A stretch of DNA of 64,000 nt, from positions 3,789 through 67,788 of the forward strand of contig JBEKWN010000009.1 of assembly GCA_049513055.1 (NCBI GenBank), given 5' to 3'. A program made the translations under genes and the position numbers. The notes beneath the pieces are model-generated. The model was not told where the DNA came from. It ran no database searches and worked only from the letters and a program-made list of their open reading frames with translations. Shown one piece after another: positions 3,973 through 60,384 of this stretch (position 1 is the stretch's first letter; each line of letters begins with the position of its first letter). The DNA comes from Thermodesulfobacteriota bacterium. Its GTDB lineage: Bacteria; Desulfobacterota; BSN033; UBA1163.

Positions 3973-5250
3973 ATGAAGGCGATGAAACCGATCAACTATG
4001 GCTGGGTGATTGTTGGAGTGGGCGTTCTCGTCAAGATGACAGGCTTAGGGTTTGGCCGGTTTGCTTATCCCATGCTCATTCCCAATATGAGAGGATCGCT
4101 TGGATTCAACTATATCGAGATGGGACTTTTAAGCGGAGCCATCATGTTGGGTTACCTTCTCTTCTCCCTTATTGGTGGAATATTGGCAACACGGTTCGGT
4201 CCCAAAAGGATTGTGATCATTTCCCTCCTTTGTAGTGCTCTCTCCATGTTCTCCATCAGTAGATTATCCGGCCTCCTTCCTCTTCTCTTCTTCAGCTTCG
4301 CCATGGGAGCAGGGGGTGCAGGGGCTCACATTTCCATGACCACTTTACCCATGGCATGGTTTGGAGAGCGGAGATTGGGCAGGGCCCTTGGCGTTGTGAC
4401 AGGTGGAACAGGCCTCGGCATCATTGTCACGGGTCTTCTGCTTCCCTATCTTCTATTCAATTTGGGTAAAGAGGCGTGGAGACAGTGCTGGCTCCTTCTG
4501 GCCTTGATTACTTTTTTGGTGGTGGTGATCGGATGGATATTATTGAGGGGAAAACCGAACCAGATGTCACTTCTTCCTTCCGGTCCTGATGGAGATGAAA
4601 AATCCATTCTCTCTCAAGACAACAAAAATGGACTCAGCCTTAAGGCAATCTTTATCATCTATTTCATCTTTGGATTTGCTTATAACATCTATGCCACCTA
4701 TTTTGTCGCTTATATGGTCGAGGAGATTCGACTTTCAGAAAAAACTGCAGGAAATATTTGGGCCCTCTTCGGTTGGATGTGTATGGGGAGTGGATTGATT
4801 TGGGGGTTTATTTCTGACCATTTGGGAAGACGAAAGGCCCTGCTCTGGAACAACGGGATCATATCCCTTTCTGTTCTTCTTCCTCTTCTGCTCCATCAGT
4901 CTTTCATCCTCGGCCTTTCTGCCTTTCTTTTTGGAGTGACTTTTTTAGGAACGGTCACTGTTATTGCTGCGGCGGTTGGAGATCAGGTGGTTGAAAAAAG
5001 GGCTTCTGTTTATGGATTGGTCACCCTGATCCATGGCATCGGACAGTTTTTAGGGACGATCTCTGGTGGATATTTAAAAGATTTAACCGGTTCTTTTCAA
5101 TTAACCCTTATTGTTTCCCTGACCGGTTTTCTCCTCTGCATACTCCTGACCTCCATCACCCCCCCACCCTTCCCTCCCCCTCAGAGGGGGGAGGAGGTAG
5201 GTGGGGGTGAGGTTAGAGAGTTTCGTAGAAAGATTTTTTCAAAAATTTAA
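3973..5250 (+). CDS. MFS transporter
   Basis: 425 aa and about 12 TM segments, with a G-rich loop motif (ATRFGPKR) after TM2. The last ~35 codons translate a GC-rich palindrome, so the true C-terminus is uncertain. Confidence 0.75.
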   Translation: MKAMKPINYGWVIVGVGVLVKMTGLGFGRFAYPMLIPNMRGSLGFNYIEMGLLSGAIMLGYLLFSLIGGILATRFGPKRIVIISLLCSALSMFSISRLSGLLPLLFFSFAMGAGGAGAHISMTTLPMAWFGERRLGRALGVVTGGTGLGIIVTGLLLPYLLFNLGKEAWRQCWLLLALITFLVVVIGWILLRGKPNQMSLLPSGPDGDEKSILSQDNKNGLSLKAIFIIYFIFGFAYNIYATYFVAYMVEEIRLSEKTAGNIWALFGWMCMGSGLIWGFISDHLGRRKALLWNNGIISLSVLLPLLLHQSFILGLSAFLFGVTFLGTVTVIAAAVGDQVVEKRASVYGLVTLIHGIGQFLGTISGGYLKDLTGSFQLTLIVSLTGFLLCILLTSITPPPFPPPQRGEEVGGGEVREFRRKIFSKI

Positions 5251-5824
5251 AGGAAGCAACAAATTTGTCAAAGACGTCGAAAGCGGATAGATCGTAAGAC
5301 CCATCCATAGGTCTCCATTGGGTAATATAGAAGCCTACGATCCGGTCACCCCGTTTACCGAAGACCACTTTGGCTCTAACCTTCTCCTTTTTCACTGGGT
5401 CCTTTCCCTCTACCAATACTGCCAGCCCTTCTCCACCAACGACCTGAACCTTTTTTCTGTTTAAAATTTGAAACTGAAGAATCGCATTGAAAAGAAACCT
5501 CTTAAAAAATTCCCTTTCCCTCCCCTCGAACGATGCTGCTGTACACCCAAAAGGATCCTCATCATAAGCAAACGTGGTGACAGAGGGAAAGGGTCCAGGG
5601 TCTGATCTCATAAATCCAAAATTTATATCATTCTCGCCTGCTTCCACCCGTAGTAATTTCCAATCCGGGGAAGGGGGCATAAACTCAAACTCGTCTTCCC
5701 AGACGACCGTTCCCTGAGGAGTCAATCTGTAAGGAACCTTCTTGGAGGTTTGCATCGAGGCACACCCAGAAAGCCAGGCCGCCACCAACACAAAACACAG
5801 AACCGTCAGCAATTTTCTTTTCAT
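5213..5824 (-). CDS. putative lipoprotein
   Basis: Signal peptide with lipobox LSGC. No family recognised. The start overlaps the stop of the upstream peroxiredoxin (ATGA-type coupling at 5821-5824). Confidence 0.5.
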   Translation of the reverse strand: MKRKLLTVLCFVLVAAWLSGCASMQTSKKVPYRLTPQGTVVWEDEFEFMPPSPDWKLLRVEAGENDINFGFMRSDPGPFPSVTTFAYDEDPFGCTAASFEGREREFFKRFLFNAILQFQILNRKKVQVVGGEGLAVLVEGKDPVKKEKVRAKVVFGKRGDRIVGFYITQWRPMDGSYDLSAFDVFDKFVASFKFLKKSFYETL

Positions 5825-6372
5825 GGTTTTCCTCCTTCCTGGTTCAATTTTTTGAGAAAGAGGAGAATGTCCTTGAAATCAGGCGAGCCATCCCTCACAT
5901 AACGAATAATGCCAGTTTTATCGATAATCACCGTTCGCCTTCCAAAGATGGGTTTTCCTTCAGGCTGGATGTCGAAATAAGCACCTAAAAAAGCAGTGAT
6001 GTTCGAAAGGAGAGGAAAGGTTATACCCAAACCATTCGCCCAATATTTTAATGTTGTCACATCATCTCGACTGACGCCCACGACCCGGGCGTTGAAGCGG
6101 TCATAGAGGTAGAGGTTCCTCTGATGGCCCTCCATTTCGCCCGTTCAGACAGGGGTAAAGGCAGCTGGAAAGAATGTGATGATCAGATGGTACTTTCCAT
6201 AATACTCATCGGCATAGTTGATCAACCGGTCCTGCGTGGATGGCAGGGTAAAATTGAGGGTCTCTCGACCGATTAACTCTACTTTTTTCGCAGCTTCCAC
6301 ATTGGAAAAGAGAAAAAGAGATAGAAAAAGTAGTGAGAATAAAATCCATCGATTTAATGCTTTTTTTCTCAT
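5821..6372 (-). CDS. secreted peroxiredoxin (AhpC/TSA-BCP family) with in-frame UGA (selenocysteine candidate) at the peroxidatic Cys position
   Basis: Track ORFs 6145..6372 and 5821..6135 are in the same frame and are separated only by TGA (6145-6147). The read-through product is FFPAAFTPV-U-TGEMEG...VVGVSRDD...TFPLLSN, which matches the Prx motif FxPxxFTPVCTxE...GVSxD...FPLLSD. Confidence 0.7.
6086..6143 (-). promoter_or_regulatory. candidate SECIS-like stem-loop immediately 3' of the UGA
   Basis: On the mRNA, CGGGCG (2 nt after the UGA) can pair with CGCCCG about 50 nt downstream. Inner helices are AUGGAGG/CCUCUAU and AGAG/CUCU. All pairings were hand-drawn and not scored. Confidence 0.3.
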
Positions 6373-6638
6373 TAGTCCCTCCTTTCAGTTTTTTAAAATT
6401 TTATAATATTCCCTACTGTTTTGCAATCTTCATTTCTCTCACTGAGAAACTATTTATAAAAGGAGGATGACCGTATCCCTGCCTACGACAGGCAGACGGG
6501 TCTCGTATCGGTAGTCTCAAATATTCATTGCACTGTGAATCATTGAACAACCTTTTGATTTTCGTTGACTTTTGTATGCTGTTTAATCATGATATGGCTA
6601 TCTATCGAATGAATTCTTTTAAGAAGGAGGTGAATAGA

Positions 6639-23292: not shown

Positions 23293-23754
23293 ATGGCCGA
23301 GAAGCTGATTTGTCAGAACAAAAAAGCTTTCCATAATTACTTTATCGAAGAGACGTACCAGACCGGGGTCTCCCTTCTGGGATCAGAGGTTAAGGCATTG
23401 CGGGACGGAAAGGTCAACCTGGGGGATAGCTATGGGGATATCAAAAGAGGTGAGGTTTTTCTCGTCGATGCTCATATCAGTCCTTATCCCCAAGCAAACC
23501 GGTTGAATCACGATCCTTTAAGGACCCGAAAACTCCTCCTTCATAAGAGGGAGATTAAACGGCTAATCGGTAAGGTGGAACAGAGGGGATATACGCTGAT
23601 TCCGCTCAAGCTCTACTTTGTGAACGGTAAGGTGAAGGTAGATCTGGGTCTCGCAAAGGGGAAGAAGCTTTATGATAAACGTGAGACCCTTAAGAAGAAA
23701 ACCATGGAACGCGAGATGGAAAGGGGGCGAAAAGGGTTCGACGGGGATCGTTGA
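23293..23754 (+). CDS. smpB: SsrA-binding protein SmpB
   Basis: [21 protein letters not shown] and LLLHKREI..L are canonical SmpB sequences. Confidence 0.95.
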
Positions 23755-24079
23755 CGTCAGGGCTGCATACCGAGGTCCCATTGGCTCGTAAAACAAATGG
23801 GATTAAACATAATCGCAAACAACTACGATTATGCCCTGGCTGCCTAAACGCAGCTAGGCGTCCTTCCCTGTCCTCTCCTGTAGGGCGGGACAAGGATGTC
23901 AGAAAAACAGGATAGTTCCTCTCTGACGCCTATAAGAGAGGGGCGAAACTTTATAGGATAGCCTTTCAGGAATCCTGCCTGTGGGAGTCCTGAGGGGCGA
24001 ATTTAAAATACAGGCTATGTATGTAGATGTTCTGTCGGAAGGTTTCCGGACGCGGGTTCGATTCCCGCCGCCTCCACCA
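23723..24079 (+). ncRNA. ssrA: tmRNA (SsrA), tag ANNYDYALAA
   Basis: The 5' GGGGGCG pairs with the 3' CGCCTCC-ACCA and includes the G3:U70 alanine identity pair. GGTTCGACGGGG is near the 5' end. The resume codon is GCA at 23815, followed by GCA AAC AAC TAC GAT TAT GCC CTG GCT GCC TAA. The T-arm GGTTCGATTCCCGCC is at the 3' end. Confidence 0.9.
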
Positions 24080-24081
24080 AA
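24057..24081 (+). repeat. attL: 25-bp direct repeat (3' end of ssrA)
   Basis: TTCGATTCCCGCCGCCTCCACCAAA is identical to 33071-33095. Confidence 0.85.
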
Positions 24082-24084
24082 TCT

Positions 24085-24744: not shown

Positions 24745-24924
24745 ATTAAAAGCCTATCACAATGGGGGGCGTTATGCAACGGCAAAAAAATACTTGACTT
24801 CTCAGGTGATATATGTCATATTTAATTAGAAACTGTGTGACGGATGTGAGTTAATGTAATTGTATAACAAAATTCAGAAGTAAATAATTAAAGTTCGTTA
24901 ATCAAATTTAAATCGGAGGATAAA

Positions 24925-27285
24925 ATGACAGTTCACCTTTTCAAAGCCCACCTCGAACACCTCATTAAAAGTTCTGGCCTGACAAAATCGACAATCAAAG
25001 ATGCAGGGCTCTACACCTTGCCCCCTGGAGACATTAGGAAGAAGCTGGGGTTTGATGAAGGAGTAGACTCTGTTCTTGTTTTTCCATATCAGAATTTCAA
25101 GGGGGTCGAACGCTACAAAACATTTCCTCCAATAGACGGTCGTAAATACTTTCAAAAAAAGGGAACACCCAATCATCTCTATACCCTCAAATCTGATATT
25201 CCCTTCTTCTCGGATGTGTCCGTTCCTGCTTGGATCACCGAAGGTGAGAAAAAGAAGCTCAAAGGACAGCAGGAAGGATTATTTACCCTTGGCCTCTCTG
25301 GAATCTGGGGATGGACAAACGGAAAGAAAAAACTATTGAAGGATTTTGATGAGATTGAGTTTAAGGGAAGGGTGGTTAATATCATCCCAGACAACGATTA
25401 CCTCCAGCCTAATAAGTACGGAAAAGGGAAGAATCTGGAACAGGCGGTGGATGAGTTAGCCGCAAGCCTAACAAAGTTAGGGGCGGAGGTGTTCATTGTT
25501 AAATTGCCACCCGGACCAGAGAAGGGTTTGGATGATTTTCTATGCGTCTACACCATTAAAGAACTCTATGCACTTCCAAAAGAAAAGTTTGAGGGAAAGG
25601 CGGAAAAAAAGAAGAAGAAGTTTTCCCAGGCCGAAATTATTATTTCAGAGGTTTCAAAGAACGAAGAGATTAAACTCTTCCATAACGAGGATCAGGAACC
25701 ATTCGTATTCTTAGATCGGGAGGCAGTATCCCTCCGTTCAAGAAAAATGAGGCAGTATCTTTCTTTGATTTATTACTCCAGCACAGGAAAGGGGTTGAGT
25801 TCCGATTCCCTTAATCAAGCGTTGAATATTTTAGAAGCGGTAAGCATTTTCAAGTCACCAATGTATCCTTTGTTAAACCGGGTGGCTCGTGTTGGAGATG
25901 TGTTTTATTACGATTTGTGTGTAAATGGAAAGGCTGTTCGCATAGCACCTTCGGGATGGGAGGTCATTGACTCACCCATTCTTTTTAGACGATATTCCCA
26001 CCAAACACCACAGTTGATTCCATGTCATGGTGGTGATCCCTGGCAGATATTTAAGTATCTGAATGTCACGGAAGAGTATCGACTGCTAATTCTCATCGTT
26101 GTCATTTCTTATTTCATTCCAGAAATCCCTCATCCCGTGCTCCATCCACATGGAGCCCAAGGTTCAGCCAAAACTACAGCGTGTAAAGTTATCAAGAGGA
26201 TCGTGGACCCATCTCTGGTGGAAGTCTTTGGTGCTCCAAAGGATTATTTCCAGGTAGTCCAGAACCTCACACACCATTACCTATCTATTTTCGATAACGT
26301 TACAGACTTGAAGGATTGGATCTCCGACCTGATTTCCCTGGCCGTGTCCGGAGGCGGATTTTCCAAGCGACAACTCTTCACGGATGACGATGATGTGATC
26401 TATCGGATTCAAAGATGTGTTGGACTAAACGGAATCAACCTGCTTGTGTCGAAGCCAGACCTGATGGATCGAACCGTCCTGTTTCCTTTGCACAGAATAG
26501 AACCTTCCCGGAGGAAAGAAGAGGGAGACCTCTGGAGTAAGTTTGAGGCTGACAGGCCATCCATCCTGGGGGGAATCTTCGATGTACTCTCGAGGGCGAT
26601 GGAGATCCATCCGAATATCACCTTATCATCTCTTCATCGAATGGCCGACTTCGATCGATGGGGGTTTGCGATTGGTGAAGCACTTGGAAGAGGACTTGGA
26701 GAAGAATTTCTAAAAGCATATCAGAAGAACGTCGAACGCCAAAATGAAGAAGTTATCCAAGGAAACACGCTGGCACAGGCTCTTCTCCGGCTGATGACTG
26801 ATTATCCGATGGAGGAGTGGGAGGGAACCGTTGGTGACCTCTTTAAGGTGCTGACAGAGATCAGCCCACCCGTCAAGGATGACGATACCTTTCCGAAGGT
26901 GCAGCGGACCCTGAAGAAGCACATAGAGAGGATCACACCGACGTTGCTTGATCATGGATTGAAGTTTACCTTCCATCCGAAAAAGACAAGGGAAGGATAT
27001 AAAATAACCATCCATAGAGATGGGAAATTTGGTTCATTTGATTCACAGAGAGTCTCACCACCAGATAACCACACGGAATCAGACGAGAATTCGTGTGAAC
27101 CAAACGGTGAACCAAGTGTGAACCAAAACGAGAATCAGGAATTTGGTTCACCGCTTAGTTCACCATCTAACATATCGGAATCATTGAGGTGTGAACCAAA
27201 TGAACCAAGTGAACCAAAATTCCATCCTTCACGGGGTGATGTTGTTAAAAATGACTCAGAAATCGAATTCCCTACAGGAGAATGA
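24925..27285 (+). CDS. primase-helicase-type replication protein (N-terminal Toprim/DUF3854-like, central P-loop NTPase)
   Basis: Toprim Glu (AWITEGEKK) and DxD (IIPDND). Walker A-like HGAQGSAKTT and Walker B-like LSIFDNV. 786 aa. Confidence 0.65.
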   Translation: MTVHLFKAHLEHLIKSSGLTKSTIKDAGLYTLPPGDIRKKLGFDEGVDSVLVFPYQNFKGVERYKTFPPIDGRKYFQKKGTPNHLYTLKSDIPFFSDVSVPAWITEGEKKKLKGQQEGLFTLGLSGIWGWTNGKKKLLKDFDEIEFKGRVVNIIPDNDYLQPNKYGKGKNLEQAVDELAASLTKLGAEVFIVKLPPGPEKGLDDFLCVYTIKELYALPKEKFEGKAEKKKKKFSQAEIIISEVSKNEEIKLFHNEDQEPFVFLDREAVSLRSRKMRQYLSLIYYSSTGKGLSSDSLNQALNILEAVSIFKSPMYPLLNRVARVGDVFYYDLCVNGKAVRIAPSGWEVIDSPILFRRYSHQTPQLIPCHGGDPWQIFKYLNVTEEYRLLILIVVISYFIPEIPHPVLHPHGAQGSAKTTACKVIKRIVDPSLVEVFGAPKDYFQVVQNLTHHYLSIFDNVTDLKDWISDLISLAVSGGGFSKRQLFTDDDDVIYRIQRCVGLNGINLLVSKPDLMDRTVLFPLHRIEPSRRKEEGDLWSKFEADRPSILGGIFDVLSRAMEIHPNITLSSLHRMADFDRWGFAIGEALGRGLGEEFLKAYQKNVERQNEEVIQGNTLAQALLRLMTDYPMEEWEGTVGDLFKVLTEISPPVKDDDTFPKVQRTLKKHIERITPTLLDHGLKFTFHPKKTREGYKITIHRDGKFGSFDSQRVSPPDNHTESDENSCEPNGEPSVNQNENQEFGSPLSSPSNISESLRCEPNEPSEPKFHPSRGDVVKNDSEIEFPTGE

Positions 27286-27731: not shown

Positions 27732-27747
27732 AAGAAACTCAAACATT

Positions 27748-27990
27748 ATGGAGGTGATTAAAATGGCTGAAAGGTTCGAAGGGAAGGTCAAATTCTTTTC
27801 TTCCCAAGGGAGGTATGGCTTCATAATCGGTCCGAATCAAATTGAATATTATTTCCGAGAATCCGACTGTCAGAGAACCGTGACTAATTTGAAGGATGGG
27901 GAGCCAGTATCGTTTGTTCTGGTCAATGGGTTGAAAGGGCCTCGTGCCGTGGCCATTAGGAAAACATCTGATGTGGAGGAGAGTAAATGA
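27748..27990 (+). CDS. cold-shock domain (CspA-family) protein
   Basis: GKVKFFSSQGRYGFI carries RNP1-like motifs, followed by FRESD. 80 aa, with OB-fold length and pattern. Confidence 0.75.
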   Translation: MEVIKMAERFEGKVKFFSSQGRYGFIIGPNQIEYYFRESDCQRTVTNLKDGEPVSFVLVNGLKGPRAVAIRKTSDVEESK

Positions 27991-28715: not shown

Positions 28716-30665
28716 ATGAAGAAATCGAAAAAAAATAAGCCAGGACCACACAGGATTGAAGGTCCGATGAGGAAACTTCTTGGCATGAAGGAACGAGGTT
28801 CTTCCAAGAAGATTGAGAATCCTCCGCATAGACTATCATTTCCTGCCAAATCCAAGAAGATGTCGAATGGGGAATATCAGTTTAATAAGTTTAACCACTT
28901 CTGTGAATCCTATCTGAAACACGTCTCGGGCGAGTTTGCGGGCTTACCATTTATCCTTGAACCGTGGCAGAAGAAGATTGCCAAGGTGATTTTCTCGACA
29001 TTGAAGAAAGACGGATCGAGACAATACCGCAAACTGCTAATCCATGTAGGCAGGCGAAACGGAAAGTCGACATTTGCAGCAGCCTTCATCCTTTTTTGGC
29101 TATGTGAAGAATCCTTTTCTGATCCAGCTGCTGAAATCTATGGAGCATCAGGAGATGAGAAACAGGCTGCTTTAATCTTCCGTATCTGTCAACTGATGAT
29201 CCGTCAGTCCGAAGAACTCTCACAACTGCTTGAGGTCAAACCATTTTATCATAGGATTGCGAACCCTTTAACCATGGGTGTTTATGAAGTCCTTTCATCC
29301 AAAGTCCCGACAAAGCCAGGTAGAAATTCATCCCTCGTCATCATCGACGAAACGTGGGCTCTACCTTCTGGTGAACTCTACACCCTCTTGGAGACCTCGA
29401 TGGGCAGCAGGAAGCAGCCCTTAATGATCAGCCTAAGTTCTGCAGGGGAGTCAACCGGATCCTTCTATTATGAATTGTATGACTATTCGAAACGGGTTGA
29501 AGCGAATCCCAAAATGGATCCTGCTTTCTATCCGGTCATTTTCGAAGTTGAAGCAGACAAAGATCCCTTTGATGAGCGATTTTGGAAGCAGGCTAATCCG
29601 GGACTTGGAAAATATCGCTCTCTTGAGGAGATGAGGGAACTCGCTTCCAGAGCAAAACATGCTCCTGCTCAGGAAGGTGTTTTTAGAAGGCATTATTTGA
29701 ATCAGTGGGTATCCCTGGGCATCGAATCATGGCTTCCTTCACTCGTGTGGGATGGGTGCGGTGATCCGATCGATTATCCATCTCTTCCTCAAAGAAGATG
29801 CTTCATGGGAATTGATCTTTCCTCTTCAATCGATCTTGCAGCTGTTGTTCTATTATTTGAACCTCTTGAACCGGGTGGGAGATGGGACACCTTTCCTTTC
29901 ATTTGGGTGCCGGGAACAGAATTGACAGCTAAATCAAGAGAGGATCATCTGGCCTATGATGCGTGGTATGCACAGGGACTCATTTTTTGGGAAGGGAAGC
30001 CAGCTATTGATTTTGGATCCATCGCTGAGAAAATTCTGGAGTTGAATAAAGAATTTAATTTGGTTGGCGTTGGCTTTGATCCATGGCGCGCGAAGGATTT
30101 GATCGACTTCCTGAGACAGCAAGAAGGCTTCGAAGAAAAGCTGGTCCCGATCCCGCAACAATTCTCTTTCATGTCCGATGCCACAATGGAGATCCAGAGA
30201 AAAGTCCATAATCGTGAGCTTCGTCATGGAGGACACCCCGTACTTCGTGCCATGTCTGAAAATGTGAAGCTGGTTACCGATACGAAAGGGAATAGAATGA
30301 TCGATAAGAAGAAATCAAGGACCAGGATTGACGGCATAAGCGGGCTGTGTATTGCACAATCCTGTGCCACAAAATTCAAGAGTGTGAGTCAAGGTAGTGT
30401 TTATGATCACCGGGGCATCCTAACCCTCGATCTCCGGCCGACCGGACACTTAACCTCTGAAGACTGGAATGGATTAGGCATCCCCCCAATCCGATATGTT
30501 GAGGATGAACCCACCGAACCCCATGGAGATCACCCTTATTGCATCCGATGTATCAAACAAGAATCTGGAAGAAAGGTTTTTCTCATAAAGAAGAACGAGG
30601 ACCTTTGGGATTGTCCTGTGTGTGGTCTGCATCACACCCGGGATGATCTGAAAATTAACCCCTAA
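28716..30665 (+). CDS. phage terminase large subunit (Terminase_1/COG4626-like) with C-terminal zinc-ribbon extension
   Basis: Walker A-like GRRNGKST and Walker B VIIDETW. An RNase-H-fold nuclease half is present (MGIDLSSSIDLAA, VGFDPWRA, IDGISG). The C-terminus has CIRC...CPVC. Confidence 0.8.
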   Translation: MKKSKKNKPGPHRIEGPMRKLLGMKERGSSKKIENPPHRLSFPAKSKKMSNGEYQFNKFNHFCESYLKHVSGEFAGLPFILEPWQKKIAKVIFSTLKKDGSRQYRKLLIHVGRRNGKSTFAAAFILFWLCEESFSDPAAEIYGASGDEKQAALIFRICQLMIRQSEELSQLLEVKPFYHRIANPLTMGVYEVLSSKVPTKPGRNSSLVIIDETWALPSGELYTLLETSMGSRKQPLMISLSSAGESTGSFYYELYDYSKRVEANPKMDPAFYPVIFEVEADKDPFDERFWKQANPGLGKYRSLEEMRELASRAKHAPAQEGVFRRHYLNQWVSLGIESWLPSLVWDGCGDPIDYPSLPQRRCFMGIDLSSSIDLAAVVLLFEPLEPGGRWDTFPFIWVPGTELTAKSREDHLAYDAWYAQGLIFWEGKPAIDFGSIAEKILELNKEFNLVGVGFDPWRAKDLIDFLRQQEGFEEKLVPIPQQFSFMSDATMEIQRKVHNRELRHGGHPVLRAMSENVKLVTDTKGNRMIDKKKSRTRIDGISGLCIAQSCATKFKSVSQGSVYDHRGILTLDLRPTGHLTSEDWNGLGIPPIRYVEDEPTEPHGDHPYCIRCIKQESGRKVFLIKKNEDLWDCPVCGLHHTRDDLKINP

Positions 30666-31451: not shown

Positions 31452-31468
31452 TATGACCGGGAAATAGA

Positions 31469-31703: not shown

Positions 31704-31808
31704 ATGAATTACCAAACGGCCATTTTATTATTTATTTTCACCATGGTTGTTTTAGGTTTGGGCATTGTAGTTATCGATTTTATAAAAGGGAGAGTAAGAA
31801 AGAATTGA
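31704..31808 (+). CDS. 34-aa hydrophobic micro-protein (not in ORF track)
   Basis: A strong RBS (GGAGGGAGGAGG) lies 6 nt upstream of the ATG. The product is MNYQTAILLFIFTMVVLGLGIVVIDFIKGRVRKN, one TM helix plus a basic tail. Its stop overlaps the first possible start of int. Confidence 0.3.
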   Translation: MNYQTAILLFIFTMVVLGLGIVVIDFIKGRVRKN

Positions 31809-31840
31809 CTGAAAGTTTTCCTTCGACTATTATAATCTGC

Positions 31841-32986
31841 ATGAAGGGTGGTATCTATTCTAAAGAGAGATGCCCGGTCTGTAACCGGAACTTTCAGCAC
31901 ATTGGGAATGACCTTATCTGCCCTGATCACCAAACAAGACCCAGAAGATACTACATTGCAATGTATAGCAGGGAGCTTGGCAGGAACCTTGTCGTGTGTT
32001 CTGATCCATCAAGGAGACTTCCATTCTCTTCTTATGAGATGGCCTACCGGATATTGGAGAAGATCAGGTCAGAGATTGATGCACACACTTTTGATCTGTC
32101 CAGATACGTGCAGGCGAAGTTGAGGCCATTACAATTCAATGTATGGGCTGATGAATGGCTATCTAAGAAAGAGATCCTTGTGGAAAAGAAGGTCAGGACC
32201 CCATCATATTTGAAGGAGTTGAGGAGGTTCGTCAGGATCTACAAGGGATTTTTTGGAGAGATGGACATCAGAGACATCGGAAATAAAGCCGTTGATAACT
32301 TCTTTTTAAGTATCCGTGGTAAGCCAAAGTATCAGGCCAATATTATGAACGGCCTTCATAAGATGTTAGCGGATGCCTTGGATTGGAAGGATATAGGGAT
32401 GATGCCAACATTTCCAAAGATAGAAGTGCCGGAGCAAGAGGTGAAAGTTATTACTTTGGAAGATCAGGACCGGATCATCAATTTGATTGAAGACAAAATG
32501 GATCGGGCGTATATCTTATTTACAGCAAGAGAGATGGTGAGGCCGTCCGAAACGAGGGCGTTGTGCTGGGATGCTATTGATCTCCTGCATAACAAGGTGA
32601 CTATCAAGAGGCACTTCTCATTGAATGAATTGTGGACTGCTACCAAGAGTAGGGCAATCAAGGTGCTGCCTCTGGACCCGGATGTGAAGGAACTGCTGGA
32701 GGGGCTACAGAGGCATATCAAGAGTCCCTTCGTGTTCCATAAAGAGGACGGGAGGCCGTACAGCGAATCCTATACACGCAAGCTGTGGAATAAGATCAGC
32801 GGAGGGATGGGTATCAGGATATCTCTCTACCAAGGAACAAGGCACAGCAGTGCCACAGAAGCAGCCACACGGGTGTCTATGGACGTGATATCGGAGTTCC
32901 TGGGGCATACATCACAGAGGATGAGTAAGAGGTACGTTAAGCAAAACCCTGATCGATTAAAGGGTGCATTGAGAGTTGCGAAGTAA
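31841..32986 (+). CDS. int: tyrosine-type site-specific integrase with N-terminal Zn-finger
   Basis: N-terminal CPVC...CPDH. The catalytic domain has ETRALCW (Arg), GTRHSSAT (HxxR) and GHTSQRMSKRY (His...Tyr). The track ORF begins at 31805 (TTG) and the ATG at 31841 is preferred. Confidence 0.85.
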   Translation: MKGGIYSKERCPVCNRNFQHIGNDLICPDHQTRPRRYYIAMYSRELGRNLVVCSDPSRRLPFSSYEMAYRILEKIRSEIDAHTFDLSRYVQAKLRPLQFNVWADEWLSKKEILVEKKVRTPSYLKELRRFVRIYKGFFGEMDIRDIGNKAVDNFFLSIRGKPKYQANIMNGLHKMLADALDWKDIGMMPTFPKIEVPEQEVKVITLEDQDRIINLIEDKMDRAYILFTAREMVRPSETRALCWDAIDLLHNKVTIKRHFSLNELWTATKSRAIKVLPLDPDVKELLEGLQRHIKSPFVFHKEDGRPYSESYTRKLWNKISGGMGIRISLYQGTRHSSATEAATRVSMDVISEFLGHTSQRMSKRYVKQNPDRLKGALRVAK

Positions 32987-44260: not shown

Positions 44261-45202
44261 TTACAACCCCTCTGATGTGTCAAGAGATAGTTTATCCTTT
44301 GGTTGAGTCTTTCTCGTTAAAACTTCTGGATGAATTATCCTCACTAGTGCCTCTAGCCCTTCTGCGATCCTAGGCGTGGGGCGATCCACTAAATTTGAGT
44401 CTATAACATAGATCGCATTCATTTTTACTGCAGGGATACTTTCCCAATTCTGCCACTTTTTGACCAAATTCAAATAGTTTTTTTTGCTCTCCATGGAGCT
44501 CATGATAATGATCTCCGGAGCCTTTAATAGGATAGTCTCTATGCTATACGAGGGATAGCTCATCAATTCATTTTCCGATATACTCCTTCCCCCAGCCAAC
44601 CGGATGAGATCATCGGCGAGTGTACCCTTCCCCACTGTTATCATAGGAACATCTCCTACCTGAAAGAAAACCTTTGGTTTAGAAAGAGATCGGGTAAGGG
44701 TGATGATATTCTCCCTTTTGTTAACCATATCTTTTATCATTCTTCTCGATTCTTTTTCTCTCCCCACAACATCTCCAATATTTTTGATTGTCCCCATCAC
44801 TCCATCGAAACCCTTTGGATCGATTAAATAGACGGGGAAGCCAAAATCGTTGAGACGATGAACGGTATCCATCCGATTGCCATCCCTAATCCCAATGATC
44901 AGATCGGGTTTTAACGAGACAATCTTTTCAATATCGGGATTCACAAACCCTCCGATCCTCGGTTTGTTCAAAACGGCTTCAGGATAATCGCAAAAGTTTG
45001 TGATGGCTGCTATTTCCTCATTCAGTCCTAAAGCAAATAGGATTTCCGTAATGCTAGGGGCAAGGGATATAATCCTTCTTGCAGAATGAGGAATTTTAAC
45101 CTTCCTCCCTATCTCGTCGGTCAATAGGCGTTCTTTCCCCTCAACGGAAATATTAAGAAGGAGGCTGATCACCAAGGCTAAGAGAAGCGATTTTCTAATC
45201 AT
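44261..45202 (-). CDS. ABC transporter periplasmic binding protein, cobalamin/siderophore (BtuF-like)
   Basis: RIISLAPSITEILFALG, KPDLIIG and a C-terminal DSNLVDRPTPRI, in the context of the cob operon. Confidence 0.8.
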   Translation of the reverse strand: MIRKSLLLALVISLLLNISVEGKERLLTDEIGRKVKIPHSARRIISLAPSITEILFALGLNEEIAAITNFCDYPEAVLNKPRIGGFVNPDIEKIVSLKPDLIIGIRDGNRMDTVHRLNDFGFPVYLIDPKGFDGVMGTIKNIGDVVGREKESRRMIKDMVNKRENIITLTRSLSKPKVFFQVGDVPMITVGKGTLADDLIRLAGGRSISENELMSYPSYSIETILLKAPEIIIMSSMESKKNYLNLVKKWQNWESIPAVKMNAIYVIDSNLVDRPTPRIAEGLEALVRIIHPEVLTRKTQPKDKLSLDTSEGL

Positions 45203-46269
45203 ATTTTCTCTGAAACTCCCGCCTCAGCAAAGGTTGCCATTTCGTTGAGAATCTTAAGGCTGGCCTCGATTAGAAATATGCCCAAGGCCGCCCCGGTCCC
45301 CTCACCTAATCTCATATTAAGGTTCAGCAAAGGTATCAGGCTGAGGTGTTCCAATATCCTTCTATGTCCTGGTTCAGCTGATTGATGAGAGGCGATGAGG
45401 TAGGGCCTTACTTGAGGTGAAAGGGATGTGGCGACCAAGGCTGCTGCACCAGAAATGAAGCCATCGATCACAACAGGGATCCGATATCTGGCCCCTGCCA
45501 AAATCAACCCTACAATTCCTCCGATCTCAAATCCTCCTACCTTAGACAGGACATCGATCGCATCCTTTGGATCGGGCTGATTGAGTGCGAGGGCTTTTTG
45601 GATTACCTTCACCTTTCGTTTCCATCCCTCTTCGTCTAGGCCTGCTCCCTTTCCCGTCACTGCGGCAACATCCACTCCTGTTAAAGCAGATGTGATAGCG
45701 CTGGACGGGGTGGTGTTTCCAATTCCCATATCACCCGTTCCCAGGATATCCATCCCTTTTGTCAACTCCTCTTCCACAAGCTCCATCCCGGCCTCAATGG
45801 AACGAATAGCTTCCTCCCGACTCATGGCAGGCCCTTCGGCCATATTGTCAGTCCCCAGGGCTACTTTTTTATCTTTCAATTGAGGGTGTCGTTCAAGTAC
45901 TGAGGCAACACCCAGGTCTGCTACGATGACCCTTGCCCCGACTTGTCGTGCCAAGACATTGATCGCTGCACCTCCACGAAGGAAGTTATAGACCATCTGG
46001 GGAGTCACTTCAGACGGATAGGCGCTCACACCTTTCCGGGTAACCCCGTGGTCTCCGGCCAGTGTAAATATGACTTTGTGGATGATTCGGGGCCTTGCGT
46101 CCCCTTTTATTCCAGCTACCTGAATAGAAAGGAACTCAAGTTGACCCATTGAACCTTGCGGTTTGGTCAGATTGTCCTGCCTCATTCTCGCCTCTGCCAT
46201 GGCCCTCTCGTCCAAAGGTTTAATGCTGTTGATTGCTTGATTAATTTTATCCATCATTCTCCCTCTCAA
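45199..46269 (-). CDS. cobT: nicotinate-nucleotide--dimethylbenzimidazole phosphoribosyltransferase
   Basis: LTKP.GS.G.LE, AGDHGV and GDMGIGNTT are CobT signatures. Confidence 0.9.
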   Translation of the reverse strand: MRGRMMDKINQAINSIKPLDERAMAEARMRQDNLTKPQGSMGQLEFLSIQVAGIKGDARPRIIHKVIFTLAGDHGVTRKGVSAYPSEVTPQMVYNFLRGGAAINVLARQVGARVIVADLGVASVLERHPQLKDKKVALGTDNMAEGPAMSREEAIRSIEAGMELVEEELTKGMDILGTGDMGIGNTTPSSAITSALTGVDVAAVTGKGAGLDEEGWKRKVKVIQKALALNQPDPKDAIDVLSKVGGFEIGGIVGLILAGARYRIPVVIDGFISGAAALVATSLSPQVRPYLIASHQSAEPGHRRILEHLSLIPLLNLNMRLGEGTGAALGIFLIEASLKILNEMATFAEAGVSEKI

Positions 46270-48348: not shown

Positions 48349-50310
48349 CTAAAAAGTGTAGGAGAGACCTCCGATAAAGTTACGCTCAGGTGAAGGATAA
48401 TAAAATTGTGCCCCCGTGGCATTGACAACGCCGAATTCTGAAAACTTTTGATTGGTCAGGTTATTCACACCGACAAAGGCCTTCAATCCCTTCCAGGCGT
48501 AGGAGAGCTTTGCATCGATGGAATAATATCCATCCAGTTTATCCACCTTGTTAGCCCAATCACTGATAAAGTATCGGGACCCTACAAGATTGGCTCTGGT
48601 GTTGAAGGATAAACCGCCCCATATTTGGACATCCGCGCCGACTGAGCCTTTATGCCTTGGAACACCGGGAATGTCATTTCCTGAATAGGGTTCCTCCTGC
48701 AGGGTAGGCTTAATATAACTGTAGTTACCCCAAAGAGTGAGCCATTGGAGGGGTCTCACCTTTGCTCCTATTTCGATTCCCTGACGCCGAGTTTTGGGAA
48801 AGTTTTCATTGGCATATGTATAGGGGTTAAAGAAGATTTCGTTCCGGGTTTCGACCCAGAAGAGCGTCAGGTTAGCCTCGATCTGATCTGTAAAAGCATG
48901 GCGGACACCAGCCTCATACTGATATCCCGTTTGGGGTTTCATCCCGGGGTTCACCTGAAAGGTCGGGAAGAATTGGATCAATTCGTCAGAAACGGGGAAG
49001 CGGAAGCTCCTTTTTACACTAAGAAAGGCAGAAGATTTTTTGCCAAATAGATAGTCCAAGCCCACGTTCCAGGCAGGCTCGTTATTGTTTTTTTTATCCT
49101 CTGCTCTGGGTACATCTTGGAAGAGGTCATAAGTCACCCACTCCTGGCGATAACCCATGGAGAGGATCAGGCTCTTGAGGAGAGACAATTCATCCAATAC
49201 ATAGGCGCCTATCGATTGCTTCGTAACTTCTACCCGGTTTGATCCGAAGGACGACTCGGAGAAGACGTTGGAATCCGAATGATAGAAATCGAGCCCGAGA
49301 GTTAATTTGTTAGGCAAGATCCAGAGGGGTTTTTCGAGAATGTATCTTGGAGTCACTCCCCAGGTGCTTAAATTTCTTTTGTCACTGAAGGAGTAGGATT
49401 GAAAGAGGTCCTTTACTTCTCTATTTCGGTAGGAAAGGTCCATTTCCAATCGACCGAGGTCCCATAATTTGGCCTTTGCTCCCAGAGCGAGATACCAATC
49501 ATTCGTTTTTGCTTTATCGTCAGGGGCAATTGTTGCCTGCCGGTCCGCTTCGTAAATGGCTTTAGGAAGGGCACCTGGCAAGCCTTGATCATCCTGATGG
49601 AAAGTTCCGCTCAGGTTGAAGCTGATGTTTTCATTCAAGTCATAGATAACCTTTCCTCCAACATCTTTTGCTCTTAAAAATCCATTCTCACGATATCCGT
49701 CTGTAGCATTATGACTCGCGTTGAGAATGGCAGACAGGGGACCCCATTTTCCACTCACGGAAGCACTCTCTTTGTTGTAGCCGTAGCTTCCCCCCACTAC
49801 TTCTGCTTTGGCAGAAAAAGGTTTTTCAGGCTTCTTCGTAATGATGTTGATTACCCCGCCCGCAGCATTATCCCCGTAAAGGACACTCCCCGAACCTCGA
49901 ACGATTTCAATCCGTTCCACCTGGTCAAGCGGGATTTGGGTCCAGTCCACTCCGCTGAGGTCGATTTCATTCACCCTTCTCCCATCTACTAATACGAGTG
50001 TATTGAGAGGACCTGTCTCCCCAAAACCCCTGATATCAACAGAGGCTGATTTTCCATTTCCGTAAATATCCCGAACCTCAATATCTGCCTCGTTTCGGAG
50101 TAGATCAACCACGTTTTGTGCATTGGACTGTCCAATCTCCTCTTTCGTGATGACAGTAACGTTGGCAGGAATCTTCCTGATTTCCTGCTCATCCCGTGTG
50201 GCGGTGACAACGACCTTCTCAAGCGTCACTTCTTTGTCTTGTGCAAGAGAAAAGGATGGGAACACTACAAAAAAGGTTAAAGATAAAAAGATGGAAATAA
50301 AATGTTTCAT
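48349..50310 (-). CDS. TonB-dependent receptor (BtuB-like)
   Basis: Signal peptide, TonB box (EKVVVTAT), a plug domain and a C-terminal beta-barrel ending in ..GGLSYTF. It is preceded by a cobalamin riboswitch. Confidence 0.9.
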   Translation of the reverse strand: MKHFISIFLSLTFFVVFPSFSLAQDKEVTLEKVVVTATRDEQEIRKIPANVTVITKEEIGQSNAQNVVDLLRNEADIEVRDIYGNGKSASVDIRGFGETGPLNTLVLVDGRRVNEIDLSGVDWTQIPLDQVERIEIVRGSGSVLYGDNAAGGVINIITKKPEKPFSAKAEVVGGSYGYNKESASVSGKWGPLSAILNASHNATDGYRENGFLRAKDVGGKVIYDLNENISFNLSGTFHQDDQGLPGALPKAIYEADRQATIAPDDKAKTNDWYLALGAKAKLWDLGRLEMDLSYRNREVKDLFQSYSFSDKRNLSTWGVTPRYILEKPLWILPNKLTLGLDFYHSDSNVFSESSFGSNRVEVTKQSIGAYVLDELSLLKSLILSMGYRQEWVTYDLFQDVPRAEDKKNNNEPAWNVGLDYLFGKKSSAFLSVKRSFRFPVSDELIQFFPTFQVNPGMKPQTGYQYEAGVRHAFTDQIEANLTLFWVETRNEIFFNPYTYANENFPKTRRQGIEIGAKVRPLQWLTLWGNYSYIKPTLQEEPYSGNDIPGVPRHKGSVGADVQIWGGLSFNTRANLVGSRYFISDWANKVDKLDGYYSIDAKLSYAWKGLKAFVGVNNLTNQKFSEFGVVNATGAQFYYPSPERNFIGGLSYTF

Positions 50311-50439: not shown

Positions 50440-50695
50440 CCCGCTTGCACCCTTCACAGTCTTATCCTCGAAGACCTTTCCGTGAAGAATATCCAGGCAG
50501 GTTTTCTGACTCTCCCGACCTTAACTCGCCTTCCCATCCTGAGTGTGTCCAAGGACAGTGGCTTTTTTGTTAAGGCACTTATCCCGCAATTTTAAAAAAT
50601 GCGGGATCAGGACTACAGCGGCGGGTCCGTCCCCGACTTTCTCCGTCTAAACGAAGATCACGGGGTTCCCTTTTCCTGGGTATCACCGTTGGAAT
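50440..50695 (-). promoter_or_regulatory. cobalamin (B12) riboswitch
   Basis: The minus strand shows GGTGATACCCAGGAAAAGGGAACCCCGTGA, then CCCGCCGCTGTAG, then the B12 box AGTCAGAAAACCTGCC (50496-50511). The boundaries are approximate. Confidence 0.8.
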
Positions 50696-50806
50696 AATTT
50701 CTTTTAACAAATTTTAAAATGGTCTGTCAAGTTTTTTCCTTTGACTTCTCTAACCTTCCGATCCTTCTTTCTACCTCAACCATTCAAAAAAAGAGGGATA
50801 GTTTGG

Positions 50807-56538: not shown

Positions 56539-56817
56539 CCAAACAAAATAGAGGCCATCCGTCAATATCTTTCAACCCTTTAGCCATGTAGTTAGGGTGG
56601 ACATATGGTCTGAAGATGAATGGATACCCCATTTCTGAAAAGGAATGGGTTTTTTTGTCTCATCAGTCTCGTTAGAGAAAAGGCTCCAAAGTTCCCAACA
56701 AACTTTCTAACGGGGCTTGCCATGGGGGTGTACCTCTCAACCAGTTCGGATGTGAGCGAGTTAGCCGCTTATTGCAAGTATTTTTGCCAGAACCAAAGAA
56801 AAGCATACAGAGACCGA

Positions 56818-57867
56818 ATGACATATTGCTTGGGTTGGAAAAGTCAAAATAGTGTGTTTATAGTTGCTGACACTGCATTAACAACTGAAGCATATAAGCC
56901 AACCGGTCCTTTCGTATCAAGCTTTGGGGAGGTTAATTATAGCAGCAAAGATACTTATGTTAGAGAAGCCTTACTAAAAATATGCGTTGTTGGCAAGATA
57001 ATCATCGGCTTTGCCGGGAATGTGAACACTGCGTTTGAGATAATTGCAGTGTTTAAACAGTTAATCTCATCAAATTCAAGTGTACATGAAGTGCTTGAGA
57101 AAGCAATTCGAAGTTGTGGTCCATATTCCAAGAAAAATGATGTCGAATTAATCGTGGGGTATGTTGATAAGAACGGTCCAAGGCTAATTAGTTACAACCA
57201 CGATGAAGAAAGAAGCATTCATGAGCATGATCAGTTTGTTCAAGTCGGCAGTATTGCCTCATACTATCCTGCTTTGTCGGAAGCTACGATAAAAATGTTT
57301 CTAAAAGGAAAATTACCAGATGAAAATATGTTAGCAGCTATTACAGCTATTCTGCAGAATTACGGAATATTGGACCGATTAATGAAAATGAAAGTAGGCG
57401 GTGTGTTCTTTGGAATCTCAGTCAACGCAACCGGTGTATCTTGGCAAGAAGACACATCTTACTTTTTGTATCCCCCAGATCTCAGAAGCTTGCAGCACAT
57501 CTCAGTTGTGGCTAGAGATAATGTGCTTTCGGTTTCATCATCGTTAAGTGGAGACAAAAGGGTATTTATGAATACGATAAACACAACTAACCCCGAGAAA
57601 TGGCAAGCCAGATGGATTCCCAGGCTAAAGAGGAAATTTAACTCTGGACAATCCATTTTTTACACGTTTCTTAGCAAAAGAGACAGACTAATAACGGTAA
57701 TTAAAGCACCCAATCCTCTGTCTAATAAATATTTCAAAATACATGCAGATGGCATGGGAAAGTTCGATTTATTCTTCTCACCAGAATTAATGGCAATGTT
57801 AAAAAACCCAAATGTCGTAGAAAAGGGAATTTCATTGCCTTTTAGATTTAATTGGATAAGTGCCTAA
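56818..57867 (+). CDS. proteasome beta-subunit/Anbu-like Ntn hydrolase with C-terminal extension
   Basis: From the ATG at 56818 the product starts MTYCLGWKSQNSVFIVADTALT...IIIGFAGNVNTAFE. This parallels the MTYC...LVF.SDSRT...AGNLATTQ N-terminus of bacterial Anbu/proteasome-type proteases, where Thr2 is the nucleophile. About 100 extra C-terminal residues follow. The track ORF starts at 56620. Confidence 0.5.
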   Translation: MTYCLGWKSQNSVFIVADTALTTEAYKPTGPFVSSFGEVNYSSKDTYVREALLKICVVGKIIIGFAGNVNTAFEIIAVFKQLISSNSSVHEVLEKAIRSCGPYSKKNDVELIVGYVDKNGPRLISYNHDEERSIHEHDQFVQVGSIASYYPALSEATIKMFLKGKLPDENMLAAITAILQNYGILDRLMKMKVGGVFFGISVNATGVSWQEDTSYFLYPPDLRSLQHISVVARDNVLSVSSSLSGDKRVFMNTINTTNPEKWQARWIPRLKRKFNSGQSIFYTFLSKRDRLITVIKAPNPLSNKYFKIHADGMGKFDLFFSPELMAMLKNPNVVEKGISLPFRFNWISA

Positions 57868-57989: not shown

Positions 57990-58016
57990 TCATCGGTAAC
58001 CATGACTGGAGGAATT

Positions 58017-58571
58017 ATGGAAAATGAATACGAGATCTTCATGGGCGCTCTATTGAAGGCAACTGCTCTGATAGCACCTGAGTTTTTTGATTTGCAGGTT
58101 GCCAGCACTGACGCAACAATTTATAGAGAAAGAGTGTATTGTTACGAGTTGTATCATCAATTAAGACAAACATTGCCCATTGGCTTTCCATTTACATTAC
58201 AGGGCGAGATCGATAAACGGAACCACCCGATTATTTCTAAAGCATGTGGGGCTATCAAGCCCGATCTCTTGGTACACAGACCGGGTGATATGGAAAACAG
58301 CAATCTTGTTGTCGTTGAGGTTAAGTCTGTTACGAATGTCAGCCAACTTAAAAAAGACTTCAAAACATTACGATGTATGACTTCGCTTGAAAATGGCTAC
58401 TTCAGAGGGATATCAGTATTATTTGGCCAAAATAACGATGATCCGTACAATAAAGCAGCTCGACTTTATAAAAAACATTGCGCGGATGCTACAGAGAGAA
58501 TCCATTTATTCTTTCACAAGCTTCCTAGGAATCCAATAGAACGATATATCGAGGAGCAGCAAACACCATAG
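58017..58571 (+). CDS. PD-(D/E)xK-motif protein (putative nuclease), hypothetical
   Basis: IKPDLLVH...SNLVVVEVK fits the PD...(D/E)xK pattern after a helical N-terminus. The ATG at 58017 follows GGAGGA (the track start is 58002). Confidence 0.4.
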   Translation: MENEYEIFMGALLKATALIAPEFFDLQVASTDATIYRERVYCYELYHQLRQTLPIGFPFTLQGEIDKRNHPIISKACGAIKPDLLVHRPGDMENSNLVVVEVKSVTNVSQLKKDFKTLRCMTSLENGYFRGISVLFGQNNDDPYNKAARLYKKHCADATERIHLFFHKLPRNPIERYIEEQQTP

Positions 58572-58744: not shown

Positions 58745-59473
58745 ATGAACAATTTAGAGACAAAATCTAAAGCAACACCTTACAGAGGTCAAATAAATCC
58801 TTTTCAAATTTCTGCTGGGATTCAAATAGTCAAGAAAAATGCAAAGCGCCTTATGGAGGATGCAAAAATTCTTTTCGAAGCAAATAGATTTCCAACAGCG
58901 TGTTCTATCGGCATACTAGCTATTGAAGAGATTGGCAAACTTCCTATTCTGCGACGCATGGCAATTGCTGAAAATACAGAACATTGGAAAATTTGTTGGC
59001 GTGATTTTTCAGATCACCTACAAAAAAGCCAACATTGGATTATTCCTTTTCTAGTCAAGAATGCGCCATCTTTTGAAGAGTTCTCAGATCAATTCTATCA
59101 AGGTCGAGATGCTGACCTAATGAATTCACTTAAACAGCTTGGGTTTTATGCGGGATGTTACGGCCGCGCTCATTGGGCAGACCCGAAAAACATTGTTGAG
59201 AAGGAACAAGCCTCGTTGGTAATACATTCAGCAAATGTTCTTCTTGCTGGAAGTCAACCTTCAGAGTTAGATGTGCCAAGTGCTCTAAATGCTTGGGCAA
59301 ATCATATGAAAGGATGTTTTTCATGCGATCCTGGAATAGCAAACAATGGAGTAGTCGAATTTCTTAAAAAAGTGAAACCAGAAAAGACAGATCGTGACGA
59401 CGGTGGTATTTCTCCAAAAGTGGCATTTGAGTTTATGAGCACAGTTATTTACATAAGCAACGAGAATTTTTGA
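58745..59473 (+). CDS. AbiV-family abortive-infection-like protein
   Basis: The N-terminal helix pair NAKRLMEDAKILFEANRFPTACSIGILAIEEIGK is the pattern I associate with the AbiV family (..dA..L...g.y..A..l...a.EE.gK). This was recalled from memory and not searched. Confidence 0.5.
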   Translation: MNNLETKSKATPYRGQINPFQISAGIQIVKKNAKRLMEDAKILFEANRFPTACSIGILAIEEIGKLPILRRMAIAENTEHWKICWRDFSDHLQKSQHWIIPFLVKNAPSFEEFSDQFYQGRDADLMNSLKQLGFYAGCYGRAHWADPKNIVEKEQASLVIHSANVLLAGSQPSELDVPSALNAWANHMKGCFSCDPGIANNGVVEFLKKVKPEKTDRDDGGISPKVAFEFMSTVIYISNENF

Positions 59474-59592: not shown

Positions 59593-60384
59593 ATGAAAAA
59601 TGATTATGATCCAGCATTAGTTGAGAAAGCTAAAAAAGTAGCTGCCGGGCCTCTTGGCAAAGAGATGACAAAATTTCCCTTGAGATTTGCAACCTCAATA
59701 CTTTTTGGTCAAAAGCCATATGGTACCTCCCCCAATTCAGATTTTAATAACGCGACTGCAACTCTTGTTGATTTTGGCCAAGGTCCAATGGCAATAACTT
59801 GTTTTCACGTTTTAGAAGCGTATAGGAAAAAACTAAGCGAAGGTAGTCAAATCATATTTCAAATTGGTAACCTAAAAATAGACCCTTTAAATAAAATCAT
59901 TGATGAATGTGAAAGATTAGATCTTGTCACAATAGATTTAAAGGATGAAAATACTCAAAAGATAAGCGATGGTGGTGAGGTATCTTCATATTTCTTTTCT
60001 CCTGTTTCATGGCCGCCTCAGGGTATCAAATGCGGTGAATTTGTTGCCTTTGGAGGATTTCCTGGTCGATGGAGGCAGCACTTATCACAGAAAAAAGTAA
60101 TGTTTGACTCATTTGGTAGCGGGGCATGCGCTGTTGCATCGGTAAGAGAAGATACCATTGTTTGCCAATTTGAAAGAGAATATTGGGTTTACTCATTTAA
60201 TTTACATCCTGGCGAAGAGTTACATGATATTAGAGGTCTCAGCGGAGCTCCAGTTTTTATTTGGAGAGATTTGAATTTCGAACTAATCGGTATCATTTGC
60301 CAATTTTCGGAAGCATATGATTTGATGTATGTCCCACCTTCAAAGTTTATCCGCGTAAACGGAACTATCATTAAGGATTTTTAG
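59593..60384 (+). CDS. trypsin/chymotrypsin-fold serine protease, no signal peptide
   Basis: The catalytic triad appears in canonical order: ITCFHV (His), DLVTIDL (Asp) and GLSGAPVF (GxSGxP Ser). Confidence 0.65.
   Translation: MKNDYDPALVEKAKKVAAGPLGKEMTKFPLRFATSILFGQKPYGTSPNSDFNNATATLVDFGQGPMAITCFHVLEAYRKKLSEGSQIIFQIGNLKIDPLNKIIDECERLDLVTIDLKDENTQKISDGGEVSSYFFSPVSWPPQGIKCGEFVAFGGFPGRWRQHLSQKKVMFDSFGSGACAVASVREDTIVCQFEREYWVYSFNLHPGEELHDIRGLSGAPVFIWRDLNFELIGIICQFSEAYDLMYVPPSKFIRVNGTIIKDF

Follow-up and report, generated by a model that had tools for sequence, protein, structure and literature searches.

Why should a gene for a peroxiredoxin (Prx) carry a stop codon at the very place where the catalytic cysteine belongs? 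The question is raised by a locus in a 64,000-nucleotide stretch of DNA from a Thermodesulfobacteriota bacterium (the window; positions 3,789 to 67,788 of contig JBEKWN010000009.1, assembly GCA_049513055.1), where two open reading frames (ORFs) of the minus strand, 6372..6145 (75 amino acids and TGA) and 6135..5821 (104 amino acids, starting from Met80), each hold a part of such a protein. A sequence-only reading of the window had taken them for a selenoprotein mis-split in two, and our analysis bears this out. We consider it very probable that 6372..5821 is one gene, encoding an exported 183-residue peroxiredoxin that carries selenocysteine (Sec) at position 76, specified by the UGA at 6147..6145, and that is coupled to a lipoprotein. 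Gene callers would have split the gene because this UGA stands for Sec at the catalytic site.

Results

One reading frame with UGA at the peroxidatic position

The two ORFs lie in a single frame, as the sequence-only reading had stated, and the TGA at 6147..6145 is the sole break in 6372..5821. The complete gene has 184 codons, including the terminal TGA at 5823..5821. Codon 76 occupies the peroxidatic position: the Prx motif PxxxTxxC reads P69-AAF-T73-PV-U76, with UGA in the place of Cys, in the context FFPAAFTPV-[UGA]-TGEMEGHQRNL. Further 3' lie the Prx motifs GVSRDD and FPLLSN, both pointed out before, and RRTVIID. When Cys was substituted at codon 76, the read-through protein matched Pfam AhpC-TSA (PF00578) over residues 34–159, across the TGA and along the whole profile, at E 3e-20 and 72.8 bits, the cut-off being 26. 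The catalytic Arg145 is invariant in the homologue alignment, and 28 family members show no variation at Pro, Thr, the Sec column or Arg. We scanned the window for other genes split by a single TGA and found none convincing besides the Prx gene.

The UGA is conserved in all related loci

A scan of 185,579 species-representative genomes yielded 80 related loci, each at species level and all from uncultured Thermodesulfobacteriota (labelled Syntrophaceae, Geobacteraceae, Desulfuromonadales, Trichloromonas and Deferrisomatales). The codon aligned to the UGA is TGA in 80 out of 80, as it is in the window. Identity of these loci to Prx is 58–91% over the C-terminal part, which rules out the recent spread of an identical fragment. 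Their upstream frame keeps a conserved ...YYGKxxLIxTFFPAAFTPV and an N-terminal signal sequence, amino-acid conservation indicative of purifying selection is seen on both sides of the TGA, and no further stops or frameshifts occur in any of the 80. We therefore give almost no credence to a nonsense-mutated pseudogene, in which TGC or TGT of a Cys-Prx gene became TGA and left two meaningless ORFs: the ORFs of 75 and 104 amino acids shown by gene callers and public records, and the lack of visible Sec machinery in the window, would suit it, but a decayed gene would not keep the same TGA in 80 species-level genomes that are otherwise saturated at synonymous positions, strong conservation of both halves, the signal peptide and start site, and a structured element after the TGA.

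Searching about 5.8 billion proteins with the read-through query gave 636 related clusters. Among the best 120 matches, 119 are fragments of 101–111 amino acids; the seven that we retrieved all start at the Met four codons past the TGA. The only full-length entry among these 120, P0001 (191 amino acids, a JGI call), has Trp at the Sec column, so a different code table had been used to translate its TGA. A second search, seeded from Geobacteraceae, returned the same pattern of fragments. Where source names were given, they were 'peroxiredoxin', 'peroxiredoxin Q/BCP' or 'MAG: redoxin domain-containing protein', and every match that carried an organism name came from a metagenome-assembled genome (MAG). 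Independent metagenome runs from peat and wetland, at least 20 of them, contain the exact sequence of the locus, which is thus not an assembly error.

Distant homologues have Cys at the Sec column in five cases (P0242, P0249, P0251, P0253 and P0254), and 'W', that is TGA called as Trp, in P0246–P0248, P0252 and P0257, as in P0001. Many of them, Cys-form and W-form alike, have a signal peptide or a lipobox. At the level of the alignment, Sec/Cys alternation at this column is the pattern expected of a selenoprotein family. The W-forms other than P0001 read FTPVW, FTSVW or FTPGW at the peroxidatic column and have signal peptides or lipoboxes; they are most likely further clades of exported Sec-peroxiredoxins with the TGA miscalled as Trp.

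A conserved hairpin follows the UGA

The sequence-only reading had drawn a stem-loop immediately 3' of the UGA. An extended hairpin resembling a selenocysteine insertion sequence (SECIS) indeed lies there within the coding sequence (6143..6086, minus strand), recognizable by its fold energy, the conservation of its pairing and the loss of synonymous variation. The 58-nt element begins 4 nt after the UGA and folds with −27.3 kcal/mol (z −4.79); none of 200 dinucleotide shuffles was as stable. It consists of a lower stem (CGGGCG/CGCCCG), a middle stem, an upper stem and a loop at the apex. The upper stem, CAU-C-AGAGG/CCUCU-AUG, has 8 bp and one bulged C (6126-6118 with 6109-6102). The apical loop is AACCUCUA, 8 nt at 6117-6110, and begins 27 nt past the UGA. 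On their own, a 42-nt core has −15.0 kcal/mol and the minimal 25-nt upper hairpin −6.2 kcal/mol. The model for bacterial SECIS (bSECIS) elements allows a loop of 3–9 nt, a stem of 4–16 bp, a distance from UGA to loop of 16–37 nt and a minimum free energy of −7.5 kcal/mol or below; the loop, upper stem, spacing and whole-element energy found here all fit it (PMC13188914).

The structure is maintained in the orthologues. Across 77 distinct orthologous segments, standard pairs fill 91.7% of the pair cells, versus 33–53% when the 3' partners are slid by 1–3 columns. Compensatory changes were seen at G36-C45, which becomes A-U in 9 sequences, and at G24-C57, which becomes A-U in 3. Two divergent sequences (L066 and L078) have UGCGG/CCGC for AGAGG/CCUCU, with a register shift of one base. 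Constraint on the nucleotides is also plain from codon usage. Among sequences sharing the amino acid, synonymous codon diversity is about 0.5–0.75 over the Prx gene and falls to about 0–0.1 at the codon preceding the UGA and in the stem codons up to about 24 codons downstream, while the loop codons (Asn86 and Leu87) and the internal unpaired stretches keep about 0.5. A shorter hairpin with a G-first tetraloop, AGAG[GAAC]CUCU, was rejected: its 3' arm falls on freely varying synonymous sites, whereas that of the long hairpin is frozen and covarying. Rfam returned nothing relevant, either for the whole window at gathering thresholds or for 5950-6250 at E ≤10; the sole local match was on the wrong strand (E 0.37).

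UGA is an ordinary stop codon in the window

UGA could, in principle, be read without selenium, either through a genome-wide reassignment to Trp or Gly (code 4 or 25) or by a near-cognate tRNA inserting Cys or Trp. In favour of this, W was called at this column in P0001 and several distant homologues, and the Sec machinery was not directly observed. We nevertheless regard this explanation as very unlikely. Of 52 ORFs in the window, 22 end with TGA, more than with any other stop, and the Prx gene itself is among them, so UGA is not reassigned in this organism. A peroxiredoxin with Trp or Gly as its peroxidatic residue would be inactive, while alternation of Cys and Sec is a selenoprotein signature. 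Plain read-through would also leave a conserved hairpin at SECIS spacing unexplained. Minor misincorporation of Cys at codon 76 under selenium starvation is possible.

The protein resembles AhpE and BCP and lacks cysteine

The sequence-only reading had suggested a Prx of the PrxU type, an assignment that we reject. Like our protein, PrxU of Eubacterium (Peptoclostridium) acidaminophilum has Sec at the peroxidatic site. However, Prx reaches just 31 bits with the PrxU equivalog model (NCBIfam NF040737), against a cut-off of 270, and the best E among the 28 family members is 6.5e-11. The PrxU profile spans 233 positions and the mature domain here 153 residues. PrxU is a cytoplasmic, typical 2-Cys-like Prx.

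Among solved structures, the single sequence matched Mycobacterium tuberculosis AhpE best (E 1e-14, 58 bits), followed by Bcp (42 bits). A profile of the family could not separate the two, with 73.7 bits for AhpE versus 72.7 for Sulfolobus Bcp (best E 1.4e-19), and a firm AhpE assignment was dropped on account of this tie. About 132 residues, including FFPxAFTxxC, align with AhpE (Rv2238c; 1xvw, 1xxu and 4x0x) and with archaeal Bcp1/Bcp4 (3drn and 3hjp). AhpE is, like the protein studied here, a small single-domain enzyme without a resolving Cys (a 1-Cys Prx); AhpE and Bcp have Cys in the place of Sec, and the signal peptide sets our protein apart from them. By sequence, then, it is a small AhpE/BCP-like peroxiredoxin. 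The mature protein has no Cys, and neither has the mature domain in any of 78 orthologues, making it a '1-Sec' Prx. It follows that there is no resolving residue, that the mechanism would use a single selenol and that an outside reductant is needed.

Export is predicted throughout the family

On inspection, residues 1-27 (6292..6372, minus strand) form a signal peptide, with predicted cleavage after V-E-A27. The N-terminus, MRKKALNRWILFSLLFLSLFLFSNVEA followed by AKK, can be divided into MRKKALNRW-ILFSLLFLSLFLFS-NVEA and AKK: a basic start, a 15-residue hydrophobic core and a small-x-small site (VEA before A). No twin-arginine motif was seen in it on the same inspection. We applied simple rules to the orthologues (a 12-mer with a mean Kyte-Doolittle value above 1.6; a lipobox as [LV]-[LA]-[AG]-C). 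The hydrophobic 12-mer is present in 77 of the 78 with a placeable start. A lipobox (for example L-A-C) occurs instead in 10 of the 78, mainly from Desulfuromonadales and Trichloromonas, and points to a lipid-anchored form of Prx. The protein is thus predicted to be periplasmic.

Export had been proposed from the start, together with the remark that an exported selenoprotein would be unusual. The first part stands; the second does not, as exported selenoproteins have precedents. Formate dehydrogenase and [NiFeSe] hydrogenase, both selenoproteins, are located in the periplasm, as are DsbA-like, DsbG-like and thiol:disulfide interchange proteins. Selenoprotein families of these last three kinds have been listed (PMC1794560).

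Prx is paired with a lipoprotein

The gene directly downstream of Prx (5824..5213, minus strand) encodes a 203-residue lipoprotein with the lipobox LSG-C21, and its ATG shares bases with the stop codon of Prx (ATGA, 5824..5821). A lipoprotein gene of this kind comes directly after Prx in 77 of the 80 loci by tblastn and in 75 of the 80 by ORF clustering, and it is the sole neighbour conserved across the set. Database searches gave similar numbers of clusters for the two families, 649 for the lipoprotein and 636 for Prx. The lipobox Cys is 95% conserved among the lipoproteins, which have no other conserved Cys. No Pfam or NCBIfam family matched the lipoprotein. Foldseek with a low-confidence model gave weak matches to PsbP, DcrB and DUF1795 (E about 1e-3, TM 0.3–0.46), which are only a hint of such a fold.

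The GGAGG of the lipoprotein gene lies within the last Prx codons (...EGGKP; window 5833-5823), and synonymous variation at the codons that encode it is near zero (0.07 and 0.01). This is a second overlapping constraint within a small gene. A Shine-Dalgarno GGAGG also precedes the Prx ATG by 5 nt (6378..6382, minus strand). Further upstream, a candidate sigma-70-like promoter (6398..6426, minus strand; TTGCAA, a 17-nt spacer and TAAAAT) is a consensus match only; with 3 promoter-like sites in the region against 2.2 expected, it is not significant alone. The gene arrangement suggests that Prx and the lipoprotein are co-transcribed and translationally coupled.

A lipoprotein homologue also follows the gene for P0242, the nearest Cys-form homologue. 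The Prx–lipoprotein pair therefore predates the switch between Sec and Cys. The P0242 locus (L083 1-1573, GCA_036706575.1) encodes AFGPNC for AFTPVU, without the catalytic Thr and Pro, yet keeps GHQRNLYLYERLN; a weak rhodanese-like ORF lies upstream. P0242 may be a non-peroxidase derivative of the module.

On its other side the lipoprotein gene converges with a gene for a transporter of the major facilitator superfamily (MFS; 3973..5250, plus strand). Their 3' ends overlap by 38 nt, and no terminator-like site was found between the two. JGI contig Ga0208819_1000067, which carries the region, ends at about window position 5150 by coordinate arithmetic.

A selenoprotein with the peroxiredoxin fold might also do something other than reduce peroxides, for instance act as a redox relay or as a reductase on the lipoprotein or on an envelope substrate such as an oxidised metal, a metalloid or a sulfur species. 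The pairing with a lipoprotein of unassigned function is tight and universal and no reductant is linked; P0242 has kept the partner without the Thr and Pro of PxxxTxxC; and none of the 28 family members scores up to the cut-off of a curated NCBIfam peroxiredoxin model. Set against this, the full catalytic set of Pro, Thr, Sec and Arg is invariant in the Sec form, and the closest solved relatives, AhpE and Bcp, are genuine peroxidases. We therefore think a different job unlikely and favour a peroxidase.

Other features of the window

An AbiV-family abortive-infection protein is encoded at 58745..59473 (TIGR04498, E 8e-29), amid three ORFs without family matches (56620..57867, 58002..58571 and 59593..60384); 56620-60384, which lies just upstream of glmU-glmS, is possibly a small islet for defence against phages. 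Some 9 kb of ORFs come after the tmRNA gene (23723..24079; window 23723-33000). They include ORFs of 786 (24925..27285) and 649 amino acids (28716..30665), the latter with no NCBIfam match, and a tyrosine-recombinase-like ORF (31805..32986; XerA-like, E 1e-11). The segment 23723-33000 may represent an element that integrated at ssrA. Upstream of the gene for a TonB-dependent receptor (48349..50310) is a cobalamin riboswitch (50479..50707, minus strand, 58 bits), with genes for BtuF-like (44261..45202) and CobT (45199..46269) proteins downstream, so that 44261-50707 looks like an operon for B12 uptake and salvage. We rejected the receptor as a Sec-containing 'CU motif-type' TonB receptor (NCBIfam 123 bits versus a cut-off of 700).

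Discussion

The above results argue that the two ORFs are the halves of a single selenoprotein gene. In the mechanism that we propose, SelB with Sec-tRNA(Sec) would bind the hairpin at 6143..6086, avert termination and insert Sec at U76. The signal peptide would send the precursor through the Sec translocon (the export channel) to the periplasm; some Desulfuromonadales would instead make the protein as a lipoprotein. There, the selenolate would reduce H2O2 or organic hydroperoxides, becoming a selenenic acid that an envelope reductant from outside the protein would recycle. This reductant could be a periplasmic thioredoxin-like protein, as the PprX-TlpA-ScsB pathway would suggest by analogy (PMC3322552), or else a small thiol or sulfide. 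The lipoprotein is probably a membrane-anchored partner of Prx and may hold or assist the enzyme at the membrane. Both the insertion of Sec at codon 76 and the peroxidase activity are predictions from sequence.

Several observations weigh against this interpretation. We looked for selA, selB, selD and tRNA-Sec with ARAGORN (window and 60 loci), NCBIfam (20 window proteins) and motif scans (565 kb), and none of them turned up in the window, in the 10 kb adjoining it on the right or in the 80 related loci of 6 kb each. According to the literature (PMC1794560), the Syntrophus/Geobacter lineage decodes Sec and possesses Sec-Prx, and it is from the lineage that we infer the machinery of this organism. 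The bSECIS consensus wants a G in the first two loop positions, and it is absent here: the loop is A-A-Y-C-U-N-U-A in all 77 sequences, and the closing G36 is itself A in 9. A subset of bSECIS elements, however, fails the loop-G constraint (PMC13188914). True compensatory changes are few (3 pairs, 16 cells) because the hairpin segment is nearly invariant, and it is this near-invariance that, at sequence level, is the stronger evidence. The RNAalifold consensus retains just 9 pairs, since the two divergent sequences shift the register by one. Metatranscriptome contigs, of low depth and from near relatives, cover part of the lipoprotein gene only, and none of them crosses the UGA. The 3 kb flanking the cassette on each side contain no conserved gene for a thioredoxin-like, DsbD or ScsB/TlpA protein. 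AlphaFold models were too poor to use, both for a full-length Prx homologue (predicted local distance difference test, pLDDT, 38.6) and for the lipoprotein (48.9).

It is possible, although we hold it only tentatively, that the pair constitutes a new two-component antioxidant module of the envelope in uncultured anaerobes of peat, wetland and sediment. Such a module would combine a Cys-free, Sec-only periplasmic Prx with an obligate lipoprotein, possibly PsbP/DcrB-like, would be older than the Sec/Cys switch and would rely on a bSECIS class without the loop G. Its reductant would be non-classical, because no thiol partner is linked. If so, selenium would be used because the selenolate stays reactive and is reversibly oxidised in an acidic, thioredoxin-free compartment. 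It is speculation only that a selenol, with its low pKa and with oxidised forms that are readily reduced, may be suited to an acidic, thioredoxin-free peat periplasm.

Annotation as fragments has consequences beyond this locus. With about 640 clusters per query, the listed database matches are all fragments save the one full-length Trp call. Selenoproteome counts for the abundant Thermodesulfobacteriota of peat and wetland are accordingly underestimates, and no model includes the catalytic residue. The hairpin is a clean natural departure from the bSECIS loop rule and should be useful for improving selenoprotein predictors. The conserved link to the lipoprotein offers a direct handle on how strict anaerobes deal with peroxide outside the cytoplasm. 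The protein would also add an extracytoplasmic, Cys-free selenoenzyme, exported by the Sec translocon, to the few envelope peroxiredoxins known, of which PprX was the first reported.

How does this system compare with those already described? Sec-Prx with TxxU is an established selenoprotein family (PMC1794560; 2026 review PMC13188914), with members (PF00578) in Syntrophus aciditrophicus, Geobacter metallireducens, Syntrophobacter and others (Zhang et al. 2006, PMC1794560). The class is therefore already known; the clade studied here is known from metagenomes only, and there as fragments. The published proteins share with ours the AhpC/TSA domain, the PxxxTxxU motif, the occurrence in anaerobic Deltaproteobacteria/Thermodesulfobacteriota and a SECIS in the coding region past the UGA. 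Going by the published descriptions, three things set our protein apart: it is exported, free of Cys and tied to a lipoprotein, none of which is mentioned in those texts (PMC1794560, PMC13188914). Its SECIS is, in addition, off the consensus loop rule.

Another known system for comparison is PprX, the cell-envelope peroxiredoxin of Caulobacter crescentus, which is reduced via ScsB and then TlpA (PMC3322552). Like the protein described here, PprX is a small exported peroxiredoxin with a signal sequence, and it is a precedent both for the reduction of peroxides in the periplasm and for a possible thioredoxin-like reductant (PMC3322552). It differs in being of the BCP/PrxQ type, with a peroxidatic and a resolving Cys, whereas our protein has Sec, no Cys and a lipoprotein as its partner.

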